Shown: positions 2,167-8,913 of the stretch, piece after piece | How the letters are laid out: each line of letters opens with the position of its first letter | Numbering within the stretch: the first letter of the stretch is position 1 | Sequence record: MZ501069 | Length of the DNA stretch: 51,777 nucleotides | Strand: one strand, 5' to 3' | Source: Escherichia phage FritzSarasin | Notes under the pieces: generated by a model | Told to the model about the DNA's origin: nothing | Databases searched by the model: none | Seen by the model: the letters and a program-made list of their open reading frames with translations, nothing else | Made by a program: the position numbers and the translations under genes

Positions 2167-3459
2167 ATGAGCGAAAAAACAAGGCTAGTTAAGGCCGATG
2201 GATACAACGAGATTTTCAAGGGTAGCAAGGGTAATGGGCGTGTGGAGTTGCCTTTCTTTATGCAAGGGTTCGAATACACCACGCACGCTGATTTTTACAT
2301 TCGCGACGGCCTAGCAAAAAGAATCATCGACGTTGTTCCAGAGGAAATGGTAACGCCTGGATTTAATATTGATGGCGTGGAAGATGAGGAAAGTTTCAGA
2401 TCTTTGTGGGATGAGAAGCGACTAAACGATAAAATCATTGATGCGCTTTGCTGGTCGCGTCTTTTTGGTGGCGCTGCAATCGTGGCAATCGTTCAGGATG
2501 GCAGGGCATTAAAGTCACCTGTAGCGCCTGGTGCAATCCTTGAAGATGTTCGCGTTTACGATCGCTTTCAGGTTCGCGTAGAAAAGCGCGAAACTAATCC
2601 ACGTAAGGTAAGATATGGCGAGCCGTTAATTTACACCATTTCACCTGGTGCGGACTTGCCAGAATATCAGGTTCACTATTCGCGAGTCTGTATTATCGAC
2701 GGTGAGCGGCTACCAAATCAGCGACGTCAATCAAATGATGGTTGGGGTGAGTCAATCCTGAATAAGCGATTGGTTGAGGCTATTTGTGATTACAACTACT
2801 GCGAAAACTTAGCAACTCAATTGTTGCGACGTAAGCAACAGGCGGTATGGAAGGCTAAAGGTCTTGCTGATCTTTGTGATGATGATGATGGTGTTAGCGC
2901 CGCACGTTTGCGCCTTGCTCAAGTTGATGATGAGGGTGGAGTAGGCCGTGCGATCGGCATTGATGCGGAAGATGAGGAATATGATGTTTTAAACTCTGAT
3001 ATTTCCGGCGTCGATTCATTCCTGGAAAAGAAGATGGATCGCATTGTATCTCTTTCCGGCATCCATGAAATCATCCTCAAAAACAAGAACGTTGGCGGTG
3101 TTAGTGCGAGCCAAAACACGGCGCTTGAAACCTTCTACAAGCTGATCGATAGAAAGAGAAAGGAGGAATACAAACCAATCCTTGAATTTCTGATCCCATT
3201 CCTGATTCAAGAGGAAGAATGGAGTATTCAGTTTGCGCCGTTAAGCGTTCCCAGCGAAAAGGACCAGGCCGAGATCTTGAACAAGAACATTGATTCTTTG
3301 AGCAAGGCTATTGACGGTCAATTCATGGATACAGAGGAGGCGCGCGACACATTGCGAGCCATTGCGCCTAACGTTAAACTAAAAGACGGCAATAACATTA
3401 AATTACCTGAGCAGGACGTAGAGCCGGAGCCAGGAACAACCGAGGGTAGCAATCAATGA
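2167..3459 (+). CDS. portal protein
   Basis: About 430 aa directly after TerL; GGAG RBS 8 nt upstream of ATG 2167 (track ORF starts at TTG 2161); acidic C-terminus. Confidence 0.7.
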   Translation: MSEKTRLVKADGYNEIFKGSKGNGRVELPFFMQGFEYTTHADFYIRDGLAKRIIDVVPEEMVTPGFNIDGVEDEESFRSLWDEKRLNDKIIDALCWSRLFGGAAIVAIVQDGRALKSPVAPGAILEDVRVYDRFQVRVEKRETNPRKVRYGEPLIYTISPGADLPEYQVHYSRVCIIDGERLPNQRRQSNDGWGESILNKRLVEAICDYNYCENLATQLLRRKQQAVWKAKGLADLCDDDDGVSAARLRLAQVDDEGGVGRAIGIDAEDEEYDVLNSDISGVDSFLEKKMDRIVSLSGIHEIILKNKNVGGVSASQNTALETFYKLIDRKRKEEYKPILEFLIPFLIQEEEWSIQFAPLSVPSEKDQAEILNKNIDSLSKAIDGQFMDTEEARDTLRAIAPNVKLKDGNNIKLPEQDVEPEPGTTEGSNQ

Positions 3460-4211
3460 TAGTGAAAGGCGTCGTTAAACAATGGCGCTTTCCTGAAGCA
3501 AGCGAGCGGCAATTGCGCCGCTCAATTCAGGAGGCGATAAGGGATCTTGTTGTGCTGATGCGCAGCAAAACAAAGGGGATGAAATTTGACGCGGACACCG
3601 AAGAAATCAACGCCGCAGAGGATGAGATTAGTAGCTTCGCGTTAAAGCTAATAGCTGGCATCGCCGCATCACTTCCGGCTATCGGCCTTGCTGTTTATAA
3701 ATTCAACGCAAAGCAATTTATTAACGTAGCGAAATCAACGGGAGGTAAGTCAAATTCAGCCGTTATCATCCTTATGGCTATTGGGGCCAATGCGAATGAG
3801 AGTTGGTATAGGACGCTATACGGTCAATGGCATGACATGACGATCGCATCTCTTCAAAAACTATTTGGAAACATCGTGTCTGACTGGTCAACCAATATTA
3901 GATCGGCAAACTTTCGCGGAATGAGAGATAGTCAGGTTAATGAATTGGCTGGTAAGAGATTTGCAGTGTATAGCTCTTGGGGTAAGACAAGGGCTGAAAA
4001 TATCATAGGCGCTTGGAATAGTAGACTCATGCGCCAGCGTCTTTATGATGCAAAAGTAACTCATTATTTTTGGCATGGTATGCTTGATGACAGAGAACGA
4101 TTGCAGCATGTACAATGGGAAGGTAAGCGCATTGCGCTAGATTCTGAACATGATTTTCCTGGTGAGCCTTTCGGTTGTCGTTGTTGGGCCATACCAGATT
4201 GGAACAGTTAA
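3456..4211 (+). CDS. head morphogenesis protein (Mu F / SPP1 gp7-like)
   Basis: 251 aa overlapping portal stop; C-terminal HYFWHGMLDDRER...CRCW motif block typical of F-like minor head proteins. Confidence 0.7.
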   Translation: MIVKGVVKQWRFPEASERQLRRSIQEAIRDLVVLMRSKTKGMKFDADTEEINAAEDEISSFALKLIAGIAASLPAIGLAVYKFNAKQFINVAKSTGGKSNSAVIILMAIGANANESWYRTLYGQWHDMTIASLQKLFGNIVSDWSTNIRSANFRGMRDSQVNELAGKRFAVYSSWGKTRAENIIGAWNSRLMRQRLYDAKVTHYFWHGMLDDRERLQHVQWEGKRIALDSEHDFPGEPFGCRCWAIPDWNS

Positions 4212-4221
4212 GAGGTGTTAA

Positions 4222-5337
4222 ATGAAGGCAAAACAAAGATTTGATAGCGCCAAAGTAAAGGCGCACTTTGATGATAACGGGTTTTTAGTTGATCGCCCTA
4301 TCGTGGCGCGAATTGGTTTACAAGTCTATCAGACTCCTTTCGGTGAGCGCAGAGAATTTCGTCCGGCGTCCGAAGTATTCAAGGCCGACTCACTCGCCAC
4401 CTTCGCAGGGAAGCCAGTCACGGTTGGTCACGTTACGGTAACTCCAGAAAACGCCGAAAAGGTTGTGGTTGGTTCTTGTGCTGGCGCTGGTGTGCCGAAC
4501 GGGATCGGCGTAGAGGTTCCGTTAAGCATTTACTCAAAACGAGCAATCGAAAGCGCGAAGAAGCGAGACACGGCTGAAATTTCAGTTGGTTACACATCGG
4601 TTGATATTGATAAACCAGGCTGGGGAAATAATAAAACTGGTGAGTACGTTTTCGATGAGGATGTTAGCGAAGACTGGAAACCTGACTCTCCTGATTGGGT
4701 TAAGTTTGATGCAATCCAGACTGAAATCAAGGTAAACCACATCGCTTTAGTTTTCCGAGGTCGAGCCGGTATTGCAAAATTAAACCTTGATAGCCAGCAA
4801 GATTTTCCGTATAGTGACGACGTTATTAACAACAAAGAGGATCAAATCATGACTGTAAAAATTAAACTGGATGGCGCTGTAGAATTTGATGTGCCGAAAG
4901 CAGTTGCGGATCACATTGAAACGCTTAAAGCTGATGCCAAAGCACAGAAAGAAAAGGCGGATGGCCTGGAAGCTGAGCGCGATGCGCTGCAAACCAAAGT
5001 AGATGGCATTCAGGATCAGATTGATGCCGCAGTCAAGAAGGCCAAAGAAGATGCCGAGCAATATGCTCAATTAGTGGCAGACGCCAAAGAGTTAGGCATC
5101 AAGTGCGACGGCCTGGATGCGAAAGCAATCAAGGTTGCATACATCAAAGAAGTTATGGGCAATGACGTTTCCGATAAAACTGATGCCTATATCGAAACAG
5201 CTTTCGACATCGCCAAAAACTCTGATAAAATGGCGGCGCAGCGTAAGAGCATTAAGGGTGACTCTTTCGCGAATGAAAAACAGGATGAAGCAGGTTCTAA
5301 GCTGAATCCTAACGCTCGTTTTGAGAAACTGAAATAA
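4222..5337 (+). CDS. putative scaffolding/prohead protein
   Basis: 371 aa; C-terminal half rich in K/E/A/D coiled-coil-like sequence; position between head morphogenesis and capsid genes. Confidence 0.45.
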   Translation: MKAKQRFDSAKVKAHFDDNGFLVDRPIVARIGLQVYQTPFGERREFRPASEVFKADSLATFAGKPVTVGHVTVTPENAEKVVVGSCAGAGVPNGIGVEVPLSIYSKRAIESAKKRDTAEISVGYTSVDIDKPGWGNNKTGEYVFDEDVSEDWKPDSPDWVKFDAIQTEIKVNHIALVFRGRAGIAKLNLDSQQDFPYSDDVINNKEDQIMTVKIKLDGAVEFDVPKAVADHIETLKADAKAQKEKADGLEAERDALQTKVDGIQDQIDAAVKKAKEDAEQYAQLVADAKELGIKCDGLDAKAIKVAYIKEVMGNDVSDKTDAYIETAFDIAKNSDKMAAQRKSIKGDSFANEKQDEAGSKLNPNARFEKLK

Positions 5338-5349
5338 GGAGTAATTAAA

Positions 5350-5859
5350 ATGGCTAAAATTGGAGCAAGTTATTTTGACACTATGGCGCGTGCGCTTCCT
5401 GGTCAGGTATCCGACACGTCAGCATATAACATCGACGGCGCTTGCGTTCTTGACAAGGAAGACGGCATCCCAATCCTGGTTGGCGTGGCTGTTAAGCTAA
5501 AAGGCGTTGACTCAATGGGTAATAAGCTGATCGACGCTATTTCTGGTGGTGGTGATGTTCCTTATGGCGTTGGCGTTCGTTCGCACTTTCAAACTACGGC
5601 TGATAATGGTCGAATGGTTTATGAGGCTGGCGGCGGAATCAACGTTATGACTGAGGGCCGTGTCTGGATGATTGGCGATGATTCCGATAAAAGCAAAAAG
5701 CCAGAATATCGTGAGCCTGTAAAAATTGATGAAAACTCTGGCAAGGTGAAAAGTGCTGGCGCTATCAATACAAACTGGGTTTACACTGGCGATAAAACCA
5801 CTTTTGGAACTGGCAATAATATGTTGACTTTGTTTGAAGTTCAGGTCTTCCCAAGCTAA
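5350..5859 (+). CDS. putative capsid structural/decoration protein (paralog A)
   Basis: 169 aa; shares YNIDG, AGVA and WxxTGD blocks with the next ORF. Confidence 0.5.
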   Translation: MAKIGASYFDTMARALPGQVSDTSAYNIDGACVLDKEDGIPILVGVAVKLKGVDSMGNKLIDAISGGGDVPYGVGVRSHFQTTADNGRMVYEAGGGINVMTEGRVWMIGDDSDKSKKPEYREPVKIDENSGKVKSAGAINTNWVYTGDKTTFGTGNNMLTLFEVQVFPS

Positions 5860-5864
5860 AATCA

Positions 5865-5890
5865 AGGCGCTCGCTTGAGCGCCTTTTTTA
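5865..5890 (+). terminator. rho-independent terminator-like hairpin
   Basis: AGGCGCTC-GCTT-GAGCGCCT followed by TTTTTTATT. Confidence 0.6.
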
Positions 5891-5909
5891 TTATGTAAGG
5901 AGAAATGAA

Positions 5910-6692
5910 ATGGCTAAAGATTATTCATCTGTTATGGGTCTTTCTTGCCCTGGTTGTTTGGTTGATTCTACTCGCTACAATATTGATGGTACTGGCGTTT
6001 GTGGTTCTGAATCGATCATTGCTGGTAAGGTTGTTTTCTTTAAGGAGAGAATCGACGGCTACAACATATTTGTTGACCACAAAGAGGGTGGTGCTGTGGT
6101 TGCGGGTGTTGCGCTAAGAAGCAACATAACAACGACAGTTAACGAGGAAGACGGGTATTCCGACTACAAGGAAGGAGACGCCATCAACATTTTGACAAGA
6201 GGTGTTGTATGGTGTGTAACTCAAACAATTGAATCTCCCCCTGAGCATGGGGATCTTGTTTATGTTAACAATGATGGTTTTGTAGCAAAGAGTGATGGCG
6301 ATGAAATCGTCGATGGCTGGATTTTTACTGGTGACTTCTACAAGTTTGATGAAACAATAAACATAGTCGGAGTCAGAATAACGCCGCTTTATCATAGAAA
6401 ATATCTTCTCACTGGTGCGATCATTGAGGCTGAAAATGGATACATAGAGGGAACAGAGACGATCAATAACGTTCAATTAAAGGTAACAGTTGTTCCAACT
6501 TGGGCTGATGACAAAACGGGTCAGTGGACAATTACAAATCCACAAGATCCAAGTGTTGCCAGTGTTAGCCGCACAGGTCTTGTTGTTCCTACTGGTGTAG
6601 GAGGTAGAGTTAACGTCAACTGGACTGCTAATGATGGTTCTGGAGTTGCTGACCAGTTTGATATTGTATTTACGAAAACCGCTGGCGAATAA
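5910..6692 (+). CDS. putative capsid decoration protein (paralog B) with Ig-like C-terminal extension
   Basis: 260 aa; N-terminal 150 aa paralogous to 5350-5859; C-terminal beta-rich region (VTVVPTWADD...VNVNWTANDG) resembles Ig-like domains. Confidence 0.5.
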   Translation: MAKDYSSVMGLSCPGCLVDSTRYNIDGTGVCGSESIIAGKVVFFKERIDGYNIFVDHKEGGAVVAGVALRSNITTTVNEEDGYSDYKEGDAINILTRGVVWCVTQTIESPPEHGDLVYVNNDGFVAKSDGDEIVDGWIFTGDFYKFDETINIVGVRITPLYHRKYLLTGAIIEAENGYIEGTETINNVQLKVTVVPTWADDKTGQWTITNPQDPSVASVSRTGLVVPTGVGGRVNVNWTANDGSGVADQFDIVFTKTAGE

Positions 6693-6717
6693 CTAATAGC
6701 ATAAAAAAACATTGCAC

Positions 6718-6736
6718 GTTTAACAAAAAGTGCTAT
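6718..6736 (-). promoter_or_regulatory. conserved motif copy, reverse orientation, upstream of capsid gene
   Basis: GTTTAACAAAAAGTGCTAT; pairs with partial AATAGCATAAAAAAAC at 6695-6710 as an inverted repeat. Confidence 0.45.
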
Positions 6737-6742
6737 CATCTA

Positions 6743-6769
6743 GGCCGTTACATTTAACGGCCTTTTTTA
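6743..6769 (+). terminator. rho-independent terminator-like hairpin
   Basis: GGCCGTTA-CATT-TAACGGCC followed by TTTTTTAT. Confidence 0.6.
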
Positions 6770-6782
6770 TGGAGGAAACAAA

Positions 6783-7754
6783 ATGGCTAAAAAATATGAT
6801 GAACTAGATGCTACGATTGTAGCGAATCATTTGCAGATTCAGGGTGTTAAGACCGACGCTTCTGATATGGGTATTTGGACCGCTCAAGAGCTACACAAGA
6901 TCCGCTCTACCGCATACGAGAAAGAGTATCCGGCAGGTTCCGCGCTTCGCGTATTCCCTGTAACAAACGAGCTTTCTGATACTGACAAGACTTTCGAATA
7001 TCAGACTTTTGATAAGGTTGGCTACGCGAAAATTATCGCCGACTACACCGATGATCTGCCGACTGTGGACGCGTTGATGACTTCTGAGTTTGGCAAAGTG
7101 TTCCGCCTGGGTAACGCTTATCTGATCTCCATTGATGAGATTAAAGCAGGTCAGCGAACTGGCAAGAGCCTGTCAACTCGCAAGGCTAACGCTGCGCAAA
7201 ATGCGCATGATCAGTTGATTAACTTCCTGGTGTTCAAAGGTTCCAAGCCTCATAAGATCGTTTCCGTTTTCGATCATCCTAACCTTACGAAAATTGCATC
7301 CAAAGGCTGGATGAGCAATGACGGCAATACCAAGTTCCCGCAGGTAGCAAGCGATGAACTGGAGGCCGCAATCGAAACGATCGAGGAAGTAACCAAAGGT
7401 CAGCACCGCGCGACCAATATCCTGATCCCGCCGTCCATGCGCAAAGTCCTGACGGTTCGAATGGAAAATACCACTGAAAGTTATCTGGAATACTTCCAGA
7501 AGCAAAACGGCGGTATCACTATCGACTCTATCGCAGAGCTTGAGGATATTGACGGCAAAGGTACGAAAGGTTGCTTGGTTTACGAAAAAGATCCAATGAA
7601 CATGAGCATTGAGATTCCAGAAGCGTTTAACATGCTTCCGGCGCAGCCAAAAGACCTACATTTCAAGGTTCCTTGCACTTCCAAGTGTACTGGCCTTACG
7701 ATTTATCGTCCGTTTACGATGGTGCTCATTACCGGCTTGAAAAAAGCTGAGTAA
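6783..7754 (+). CDS. major capsid protein
   Basis: 323 aa; strong RBS GGAGG; position and size typical of a siphovirus major capsid protein. Confidence 0.6.
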   Translation: MAKKYDELDATIVANHLQIQGVKTDASDMGIWTAQELHKIRSTAYEKEYPAGSALRVFPVTNELSDTDKTFEYQTFDKVGYAKIIADYTDDLPTVDALMTSEFGKVFRLGNAYLISIDEIKAGQRTGKSLSTRKANAAQNAHDQLINFLVFKGSKPHKIVSVFDHPNLTKIASKGWMSNDGNTKFPQVASDELEAAIETIEEVTKGQHRATNILIPPSMRKVLTVRMENTTESYLEYFQKQNGGITIDSIAELEDIDGKGTKGCLVYEKDPMNMSIEIPEAFNMLPAQPKDLHFKVPCTSKCTGLTIYRPFTMVLITGLKKAE

Positions 7755-7765
7755 TTAGATAACAT

Positions 7766-7794
7766 GGGGAGCCTTAAGGGTTCCCCTTTTTTTT
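7766..7794 (+). terminator. rho-independent terminator
   Basis: GGGGAGCCTTAAGGGTTCCCC followed by TTTTTTTT. Confidence 0.65.
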
Positions 7795-7812
7795 ATTTAT
7801 GGAGTGCATAAA

Positions 7813-8125: not shown

Positions 8126-8545
8126 ATGGTAGATGAATTTTACACAGACGCTGAAATCATGCAGCAAATCGTAAAGTTAGCGCCGCCAATGCAACAAGTT
8201 GATCCCGATTTAATTGTGGCATGGATTGAGCTTGCTAAAGAGTTTGTTTGCAAAAAGCGGTTTAAAAACTCATACCCGAAAGCGGTTGCGCTTTACACTC
8301 TTCACCTTATGACCTTAGACGGGGCAATGAAACAGGATGGTGAAAGCGTAGAAAGCTATTCCCGCCGCGTCGCCTCGTTCACTCTGACTGGTGAGTTTAG
8401 TCAGACGTTTGATCGAATCTCTTCCGATACAAGCGGAAAGCAGATCCGACAAACGCCGTGGGGCAAAATGTACGAAGTGTTAAACCGTAAGCACGGTGGC
8501 GGTTTTGGCCTTGTAACTGGATTGCGCCGGAGATGTTGCCGATGA
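8126..8545 (+). CDS. putative head-tail connector protein
   Basis: 139 aa with RBS; position between capsid and tail genes. Confidence 0.4.
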
Positions 8546-8913
8546 ACTACAATGAGATTGCAAGAATGGCTACGGCTGGGATTAACTTTTTCAGCGACGC
8601 TAACGGTATGTTTAAGTGCATCACGCAGCAGGGTGGAGTTGAGATTATCGGCGGAGAGGAAGTTACCAAGCCGGAGATTTCAGTGATGATAAAGGGGCTT
8701 GTTAGATCCCCTAGAACTAGAGAGGTTGACGGTGAAACAATCCGAGTAACCGACAAGTTGGGGATATTCACCAATGAAACTGAGATCAAAAATGGTTATC
8801 AGATTGAAATTGATGGCGAACGTTATGTTGTCGTTGAAGCAAGACCAGTCAGGCAGACTAACATCACGGCGGCTTATCGTCCGATATTAAGGAGGATTGC
8901 TGTGCATGGCTGA
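8533..8913 (+). CDS. putative head-tail adaptor protein
   Basis: 126 aa, overlaps previous gene; positional call. Confidence 0.4.

Follow-up and report, generated by a model that had tools for sequence, protein, structure and literature searches.

Two neighbouring open reading frames (ORFs) in the DNA of Escherichia phage FritzSarasin (record MZ501069), ORF1 at 5350-5859 and ORF2 at 5910-6692 (260 aa in total length), adjoin the major capsid gene at 6783-7754 on its 5' side, as had been stated in a preliminary description of this DNA. The whole stretch of 51,777 nucleotides that was analysed is called the window below. Our best explanation for the locus as a whole, to which we give a probability of about 0.8, is that a T1-like siphophage uses the products of both genes as cement (decoration) proteins of its capsid. 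The window belongs to Warwickvirus (Drexlerviridae, Tempevirinae). In a megablast search with 4200-7800 the closest relative was Escherichia phage atuna with 99.4% identity, and other members of the genus, including the BASEL phage Bas05 PeterMerian, showed 92-99%. The region is the head module of such a phage, in which small and large terminase, portal, Mu-F-like head morphogenesis protein, protease-scaffold fusion, ORF1, ORF2 and the major capsid gene follow one another. The coding features around the pair are the following.

4222..5337, + strand: prohead protease-scaffold fusion (DUF2213 N-domain and coiled-coil), directly 5' of the ORF1/ORF2 pair; Pfam DUF2213, E 7e-25
5350..5859, + strand: ORF1, 169 aa, counterpart of T1 gp49, predicted trimeric beta-tulip major cement/decoration protein; Pfam Phage_cement
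5910..6389, + strand: ORF2 N-terminal domain (aa 1-160), paralogous cement (beta-tulip) domain as predicted by Pfam, AlphaFold and Foldseek
6390..6401, + strand: ORF2 interdomain hinge (aa 161-164), from a predicted local distance difference test score (pLDDT) below 50 at aa 161-163 and the alignment of the tail with T1
6402..6692, + strand: ORF2 C-terminal Big_2 Ig-like domain (aa ~165-255) with seven predicted strands, and the stop codon; Pfam, AlphaFold, Foldseek
6783..7754, + strand: HK97-fold major capsid protein; Pfam Major_capside, E 1e-53; PHROG 264

Paralogy, family and folds of ORF1 and ORF2

ORF1 and ORF2 are paralogues. They were aligned by BLASTP over 162 aa with 32% identity and 47% positives (E 9e-16), and their Smith-Waterman score of 161 compares with 32.8 +/- 5.5 and a maximum of 62 in 2000 shuffles (z = 23), which bears out the tandem paralogy proposed for these two frames. 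The shared blocks that had been listed for them were found in part. YNIDG is present in both proteins (aa 26 in ORF1, aa 23 in ORF2) and so is G-x-VW (GRVW at 103 in ORF1, GVVW at 98 in ORF2). AGVA occurs in ORF2 only, the aligned ORF1 stretch being YGVGV, and W-x-FTGD is exact in ORF2 only, as ORF1 reads WVYTGD and the common form is W-x-[FY]-TGD. The similarity ends at about aa 158 of ORF2, and the last ~100 aa of ORF2 have no counterpart in ORF1 (alignment score 40, the chance level). At the other end the start of ORF2 falls three aa later in the alignment than that of ORF1, as it does in T1 gp48 and in all second copies, and the N-terminal arm motif MA-x-I-x-ASY is common to ORF1 (MAKIGASYF) and T1 gp49 (MAQINASYQ). 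ORF2 contains four cysteines (aa 13, 16, 31 and 101) and ORF1 one; C16 (PGC) and C31 (GVC) of ORF2 are nearly invariant among the second copies of Tempevirinae and might belong to a disulfide or a metal site.

Both proteins belong to families of phage cement proteins. The Pfam model Phage_cement (PF22758, 'E217 gp24/Pam3 gp6'; gathering cutoff 27 bits) matched ORF1 with 84.4 bits (E 1e-23) and ORF2 with 79.7 bits (E 3e-22), and PF23982 (XM1_gp53_minor_capsid) was likewise above threshold for both, with 52 bits for ORF1 and 70 bits for ORF2 (E 2.5e-19). Further hits came from the solved capsids of T1 and the T1-like phage FCWL1 (PDB 9KZJ, 9KMG and 9KMH). ORF1 aa 1-152 match a 158-aa chain named 'cement protein II / decoration protein' in these entries (E 2.6e-36), a decisive hit, and ORF1 is 47% identical to T1 gp49; the beta-tulip fold of ORF1 is predicted from this alignment to the solved gp49 chain. 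ORF2 aa 10-245, the tail included, match the 255-aa 'BIG2 domain-containing protein' 9KZJ_H (E 1.7e-17), and ORF2 also matches the 255-aa 'decoration protein gp29' chain of 9KMH (E ~1e-17). The proposed head or decoration role agrees with this result, since the solved capsids contain close homologues of ORF1 and of ORF2, so that both are expected in the virion by homology.

The AlphaFold model of ORF2, built with 18 sequences, reached a mean pLDDT of 85 and consists of two beta-rich domains separated by the low-confidence hinge at aa 161-163, with values of 83-92 over most of the N-domain and 89-95 in the Ig-like domain. In Foldseek searches the N-domain was superposed on the FCWL1 (9KMG, 9KMH) and T1 (9KZJ) chains with template modelling (TM) scores of 0.75-0.80, normalised to the target, and E values of 1e-9 to 1e-11. 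Pam3 8HDT_G and XM1 7KMX_a followed with a TM score of 0.66, and Borrelia BB1 was also a distant match. The tail was matched to the Big_2-CBM56 structure 7QUZ (root-mean-square deviation 2.5-3.0, 27-30% identity) and further to intimin and to the Ig domains of T5 pb6 and lambda gpV. Pfam Big_2 (PF02368) covered ORF2 aa 186-246 with 29.7 bits (E 6e-7; gathering cutoff 22.8 bits). We call the Ig-like tail real because the Big_2 hidden Markov model (HMM), the AlphaFold model and the Foldseek superposition agree, and the beta-rich Ig-like extension described for the second copy is thereby confirmed.

History of the pair and of its Ig-like tail

The pair was followed through Drexlerviridae, where the cement genes lie between the protease/scaffold and capsid genes in the same order in T1, haarsle, W011D, K50, Sfin-2, LL5 and PHB17. 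The number and length of the copies vary as follows.

Tunavirus (T1, Sfin-2): copies of 158 and 255 aa, Ig tail present
Warwickvirus (window, atuna): copies of 169 and 260 aa, Ig tail present
Changchunvirus (W011D): copies of 162 and 269 aa, Ig tail present
Changchunvirus (PHB17): copies of 158 and 167 aa, no Ig tail
Klebsiella phage (K50): copies of 158 and 268 aa, Ig tail present
Hanrivervirus (haarsle): copies of 170 and 144 aa, no Ig tail
Tlsvirus (LL5, ZerotoHero): copies of 159 and 146 aa, no Ig tail
Webervirus (RCIP0077): single copy of 170 aa, no second copy
Rogunavirus (e4/1c): single copy of 174 aa, no second copy

The preliminary description spoke of a tandem duplication just upstream of the capsid gene, and the paralogy on which this rests is real; the duplication itself is an ancient one and not a local event. 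A scenario in which this lineage duplicated the gene recently and then acquired an Ig domain would suit two adjacent genes that lie on the same strand and carry the same motifs, but ORF1 and ORF2 are only 32% identical, and in a neighbour-joining tree of the N-domains (151 columns) ORF2 and the second copies of Changchunvirus, Hanrivervirus, Tlsvirus and Klebsiella phage K50 formed one group with 78% bootstrap support. Moreover, the ORF2 tail is homologous to those of T1, W011D and K50, and about 17 clusters share the full architecture. We give a recent origin almost no credence, as the tree and the identity matrix rule it out. Instead, the duplication is judged to be old because of the 32% identity, the second-copy orthologues across Tempevirinae and the homologous tails elsewhere. 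The first copies cluster together weakly, and T1 gp48, which has a long branch, is placed outside the clade of second copies, again with weak support. In pairwise comparison the gp48 N-domain is nearest to gp49 (43%) and shows 30% identity to ORF2. The N-domains of ORF2 and gp48 may descend either from one old duplication with later gene conversion in Tunavirus or from two duplications with transfer of the tail.

The tails are homologous to one another. The window tail matched those of T1, W011D and K50 in blastp with E values of 1e-9, 1e-16 and 5e-8, and the motifs NN..V.L.V.V.P..A.DKTG.W and NW.ANDGSG are common to them. A search of 1.84 billion cluster representatives returned the ~17 clusters, counted at 50% identity, that match ORF2 over its full length (239-346 aa), about 15 clusters that match the N-domain only, and many long multi-Big_2 proteins that match the tail only (aa ~165-255). 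A tail captured from another gene of the same phage was considered and rejected, since tblastn against the whole window found the tail itself only and the next best hit had an E value of 3.8. Should the ancestral second copy already have carried the tail, at least three losses must have followed. Second copies without an Ig domain exist in haarsle, LL5 and PHB17, so that the core job of the paralogue is probably structural and the Ig tail a dispensable add-on.

Within Warwickvirus we compared nine genomes by the Nei-Gojobori method, taking the ratio of mean nonsynonymous to mean synonymous divergence (dN/dS). The ratio was 0.04 for the capsid protein, 0.06 for the protease, 0.085 for the ORF2 N-domain, 0.15 for ORF1 and 0.25 for the ORF2 tail, the last value being inflated by saturated pairs. 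Among unsaturated pairs the tail gave 0.06-0.14, from which we conclude that its sequence is under purifying selection and hence, by this measure, functional. Positive selection on the Ig tail is excluded by the same values, and its high divergence stems from recombination. The synonymous divergence (dS) differs strongly from gene to gene: in PeterMerian it is 1.15 in the tail and 0.07 in the protease, and in tiwna 2.3 in the tail and 0.11 in the capsid gene. In sliding-window comparisons MartyMcPhage showed 97-99% identity to the window up to ~6110, 46-60% from ~6170 to ~6700 and 96% from the promoter block (see below) onwards, and tiwna dropped to 66-77% across the tail alone (6354-6640). 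As judged from these sequence comparisons, recombination exchanges the tail as a unit, at times along with a portion of the N-domain, and at least three tail alleles circulate in the genus.

Two observations on orthologues in other records may be added here. In Escherichia phage BEBK14 (1801-2643) the ORF2 orthologue has 280 aa and contains an exact internal tandem duplication of 20 aa (60 bp), GVCGSESIIAGKVVFFKERV, inside the cement domain; this repeat may be genuine or may stem from faulty assembly. Besides, T1-like head genes, with 40-42% identity to ORF2, are present in twenty records named 'Campylobacter phage' (e.g. MG065687, MG065667, MG065643), whose genomes measure ~47-50 kb; contamination by coliphage-like phages or a mislabelled host is the probable reason.

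Capsid placement, expression and use of the tail

The structure of the T1 head gives a precedent for how the two proteins may be placed. Its T=7 shell consists of 415 copies of the capsid protein and carries 80 gp49 homotrimers and 60 heterotrimers of one gp48 and two gp49 at the three-fold and quasi-three-fold axes (Chen et al. 2025, PMC11945409). Both gp49 and the gp48 N-domain have the beta-tulip fold, and the N-terminal arm of gp49 is embedded in the shell whereas gp48 is attached to the surface only (PMC11945409). Residues 154-255 of gp48 were seen as a weak, flexible protrusion that the authors modelled with AlphaFold3 and regarded as a possible aid to adsorption, and a figure legend gives four homotrimers and two heterotrimers with hexon and penton (PMC11945409). 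A T=7 shell offers 140 trimer sites, namely 20 strict three-fold sites (one per hexon), 60 hexon-hexon-hexon sites (three per hexon) and 60 penton-adjacent sites (two per hexon). As only the last class gives two per hexon, the T1-type heterotrimers would belong to it. At such a site one of the three underlying capsid subunits comes from the penton, which fits the 1:2 ratio within the heterotrimer. In FCWL1 the portal-vertex entry (9KMH) has the Ig-bearing protein in five chains, which likewise fits a penton-adjacent placement.

From the homology to T1 gp48 we infer a similar arrangement in FritzSarasin. ORF1 would be the abundant subunit, whose trimers clamp the three-fold and quasi-three-fold capsomer junctions after head expansion and which anchors itself through its extended N-terminal arm. 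ORF2, an old and fast-evolving paralogue with a shorter N-terminus, would take the place of one ORF1 subunit at 60 of the trimer sites and thereby form 1:2 heterotrimers. Its Big_2 domain would point outward on the short hinge, in about 60 copies per head.

The unequal amounts that this arrangement calls for may be set at the level of transcription. The signals around the pair are listed below.

5336..5341, + strand: ORF1 ribosome-binding site AAGGAG, 8 nt before ATG, read from the sequence
5864..5892, + strand: intrinsic-terminator-like hairpin and T-run in the ORF1/ORF2 gap; 9-bp stem with 6 GC pairs, loop of 4, dG -16
5897..5902, + strand: ORF2 ribosome-binding site AAGGAG, 7 nt before ATG, read from the sequence
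6712..6739, + strand: promoter-like block TTGCAC, 16-nt spacer, extended -10 TGC-TATCAT, from cross-phage comparison
6742..6768, + strand: second terminator-like hairpin (9-bp stem) and T-run, beginning 3 nt past the -10 hexamer
7766-7786: third hairpin and T-run, 3' of the capsid gene, from the hairpin scan

Elements of hairpin and T-run thus follow ORF1 (5864-5885), ORF2 (6742-6763) and the capsid gene (7766-7786), and the region holds 12 terminator-like hits compared with 4.6 +/- 2.2 in shuffles. Hairpins of differing sequence occupy the same three places in T1, Sfin-2, haarsle, W011D, PHB17, K50 and LL5, and the GenBank record of T1 annotates a terminator between the pair and a promoter and terminator before the capsid gene. 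The block at 6712-6739 had been skipped by a consensus promoter scanner owing to its weak -35 and was found by cross-phage comparison; it is kept almost letter for letter across the Drexlerviridae phages compared. The second hairpin begins 1-3 nt past the -10 in each of the 10 two-copy phages that were compared, the window included. The one-copy Webervirus has the order cement gene, terminator, promoter, capsid gene, with the promoter and without the second hairpin. The predicted transcription start at 6745-6747 falls inside the 5' arm of the 6742-6768 hairpin, and a start 6-8 nt past the -10 does so in every two-copy phage. The predicted dG of this hairpin is -13.5 kcal/mol in full and about -6.4 if the transcript begins 7 nt past the -10. 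Transcripts from upstream would end at the full second hairpin, and those initiated at the promoter would miss part of its 5' arm and run on into the capsid gene. ORF2, which lies without a promoter of its own between two terminator-like hairpins, would then be expressed by read-through of the first terminator only. Such expression fits a 1:6 ratio to ORF1 and also the G+C content at third codon positions (GC3) of ORF2, which at 0.34 is the lowest of the module (ORF1 0.42, capsid gene 0.53). Hence, transcription is the probable cause of the low ORF2:ORF1 ratio, and the promoter that overlaps the second hairpin may keep ORF2 expression low.

Tentatively, and as a possibility that we consider rather doubtful, the slot that separates the major cement gene from the capsid gene might be a self-contained, exchangeable cassette for accessories of the capsid surface. 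Webervirus has nothing in this slot, Hanrivervirus and Tlsvirus have a paralogue without an Ig domain, Warwickvirus has Ig-bearing paralogues with at least three tail alleles, and Rogunavirus has a protein with collagen repeats and a CBM domain. The cassette would be bracketed by the terminator upstream and by the extended -10 promoter fused to a hairpin downstream, and this could fix the ratio of minor to major cement protein near 1:6. The conserved promoter block would mark the downstream edge of the exchanged segments and may act as a recombination joint. In the Rogunavirus e4/1c (3413-4808) the cement gene is followed by two small ORFs and then by a 'tail fiber' with collagen triple-helix repeats and CBM_5_12, which might be a different surface accessory in the same slot.

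For the tail, weak and reversible binding to carbohydrate-rich surfaces, either the host envelope or mucus, is the most likely use, and this is only an analogy to T4 Hoc together with the speculation of the T1 authors. An outward accessory role is favoured by the flexible display in T1, the hinge in the model, the absence of the tail in relatives, its modular exchange and its kinship with adhesin-type multi-Big_2 proteins, traits in which it recalls T4 Hoc.

Other roles for the two proteins have to be weighed against this picture. Many GenBank records of close relatives would make ORF1 a 'zonula occludens toxin' or 'HtjA' and ORF2 a 'scaffolding protein' outside the mature head. We regard these names as practically untenable, because neither protein matches a Zot or scaffold family (Pfam E <= 0.1, PHROGs E <= 0.01), cement models and capsid chains are matched instead, and the scaffold function is located in the upstream protease-scaffold fusion, which also matches PHROG 530 'head maturation protease' (E 4e-109). 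In the TLS paper the short protein was assigned by guess from a band in sodium dodecyl sulphate-polyacrylamide gel electrophoresis and not by mass spectrometry. ORF2 might also be a virion protein that forms its own homotrimers at a subset of sites, a mini head fibre similar to phi29 gp8.5. The ORF2 N-domain is indeed equally far from ORF1 (33%) and T1 gp48 (30%), and a 'head fiber protein' from BFVD and the base of the phi29 head fibre (6QYY) are also among the Foldseek matches. However, the solved relatives have one Ig-bearing copy per asymmetric unit, in the same trimer as two copies of the short protein, and the trimer-forming core motifs YNIDG, G-x-VW and W-x-[FY]-TGD are kept in both ORF1 and ORF2, so we consider separate homotrimers unlikely. 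Finally, the tail might lie on the shell as a structural clamp for stability rather than serve as an outward adhesion module, given that Ig-like domains stabilise some capsids and that this tail is under purifying selection. Against it speak the weak and unresolved protruding density of the T1 tail, hence a flexible one, the low-confidence hinge before the ORF2 tail and the clean absence of the tail in close relatives with near-identical capsid proteins; we hold a clamp to be quite improbable.

Several points nevertheless weigh against parts of the picture of two cement proteins in mixed trimers. The repeated loss of the tail implies that growth on laboratory hosts does not depend on it. The assignment of the heterotrimers to the penton-adjacent class is our arithmetic on published counts, on which the paper itself is silent. 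The pair has been seen in the solved capsids of T1 and FCWL1, whereas that of Warwickvirus is known from its genes alone. The ORF2 N-domain, at 30% identity to that of gp48, is not grouped with it in the tree, so that the heterotrimer rule of T1 is extrapolated far and possibly across an independent duplication. As to expression, the -35 of the promoter (TTGCAC) is poor with 3/6 matches, and the hairpins could instead stabilise messenger RNA ends.

The misleading names, which are found in Warwickvirus and many further T1-like genomes, call for correction. Orthologues of ORF1 are labelled 'HtjA', 'putative zonula occludens toxin', 'beta-galactosidase' or 'capsid decoration protein' and those of ORF2 'scaffolding protein' or 'hypothetical', the right names being found only on the T1 and FCWL1 records. 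ORF1 can safely be renamed major cement/decoration protein and ORF2 Ig-domain minor cement protein.

Label problems also concern a neighbouring gene, a small ORF of the head-tail connector region at 8533-8913, whose orthologues in atuna and haarsle are called 'ribonucleoside-triphosphate reductase'; this is almost certainly a propagated misannotation. The protease-scaffold gene of Bas05 is 99.2% identical to window 4222-5337, and in Bas05 the single change A239D in the scaffold helix led to escape from a Type I cyclic oligonucleotide-based antiphage signalling system (CBASS) (bioRxiv 10.1101/2023.05.21.541620). In that study of CBASS escape in BASEL Drexlerviridae mutations were found in this neighbouring gene and none in the counterparts of ORF1 and ORF2 (bioRxiv 10.1101/2023.05.21.541620).

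Relation to known capsid cement and decoration systems

The pair shares single traits with several head proteins of other viruses. Like the predicted trimers that contain ORF2, the phi29 head fibre gp8.5 has a trimer-forming base at quasi-three-fold sites and an outward projection, and its base 6QYY is a weak fold match of ORF2 (E 8e-3). In place of the Ig domain it has a long coiled fibre, and it differs further by being a homotrimer and by the lack of sequence similarity. T4 Hoc, T5 pb10 and other Ig-like capsid decorations carry Ig-like domains on a flexible link at the head surface and are dispensable in the laboratory; binding to mucus or to cell surfaces has been proposed or demonstrated for them, mucin binding being documented for Hoc (PMC10385173, PMC9271167). 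Hoc differs from ORF2 in that it is a monomer at the hexon centres with an unrelated capsid-binding domain and three Ig domains, whereas ORF2 has one Big_2 domain on a cement paralogue. The T1 authors drew an analogy to the herpesvirus triplex, in which related beta-tulip subunits are combined at local three-fold sites with Tri1 : Tri2 = 1:2 (PMC11945409). The triplex belongs to a eukaryotic virus, has no sequence relation to the phage proteins and is required for assembly rather than added later.

Among phage cement proteins, lambda gpD and TW1 gp56 are beta-tulip trimers that stabilise the expanded head at three-fold and quasi-three-fold sites (PMC11945409). In contrast to the pair they are encoded by one gene each, lack an Ig tail and show no detectable sequence similarity to it; gpD is absent among the Foldseek matches listed for ORF2. 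The myophage proteins Pam3 gp6 (8HDT), E217 gp24 and XM1 gp53 (7KMX) belong to sequence families whose HMMs (PF22758 and PF23982) each match both ORFs, and the fold is the same. As far as the entries show, these phages have a single homotrimeric cement protein without an Ig-bearing paralogue, and they differ in tail type and host.

The pair of FritzSarasin leaves current understanding unchanged, and its value lies mainly in annotation. The useful outcomes are the corrected gene names, an old duplication with a repeatedly lost and recombining Ig module, and a testable idea on the control of subunit ratios. The pair is a natural example of a paralogue specialised for one class of capsid sites and of possible transcriptional control of capsid-protein ratios. 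A dispensable, recombining Ig module at the surface is useful for phage display and for questions of adsorption or persistence in therapeutic phages and those of the BASEL collection.

The nearest systems are gp49/gp48 of T1 (9KZJ) and their equivalents in FCWL1 (9KMG, 9KMH), which belong to the same Drexlerviridae and share the Pfam families, the beta-tulip fold and the homologous Ig tails. The order is also the same, with protease-scaffold gene, short cement gene, terminator, long cement gene with Big_2, promoter and hairpin, and capsid gene, and the sizes are similar (158 and 255 aa compared with 169 and 260 aa in the window). In the T1 record gp49 is named 'capsid decoration protein' and gp48 'IgG-domain-containing decoration protein'. 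The window differs in that ORF1, 47% identical to gp49, bears two small insertions, and in that ORF2 is without the poly-proline linker of gp48. The interpretation of the locus as tandem head proteins with an Ig-like extension on the second is thus essentially the picture already published for T1, the type phage of the family.

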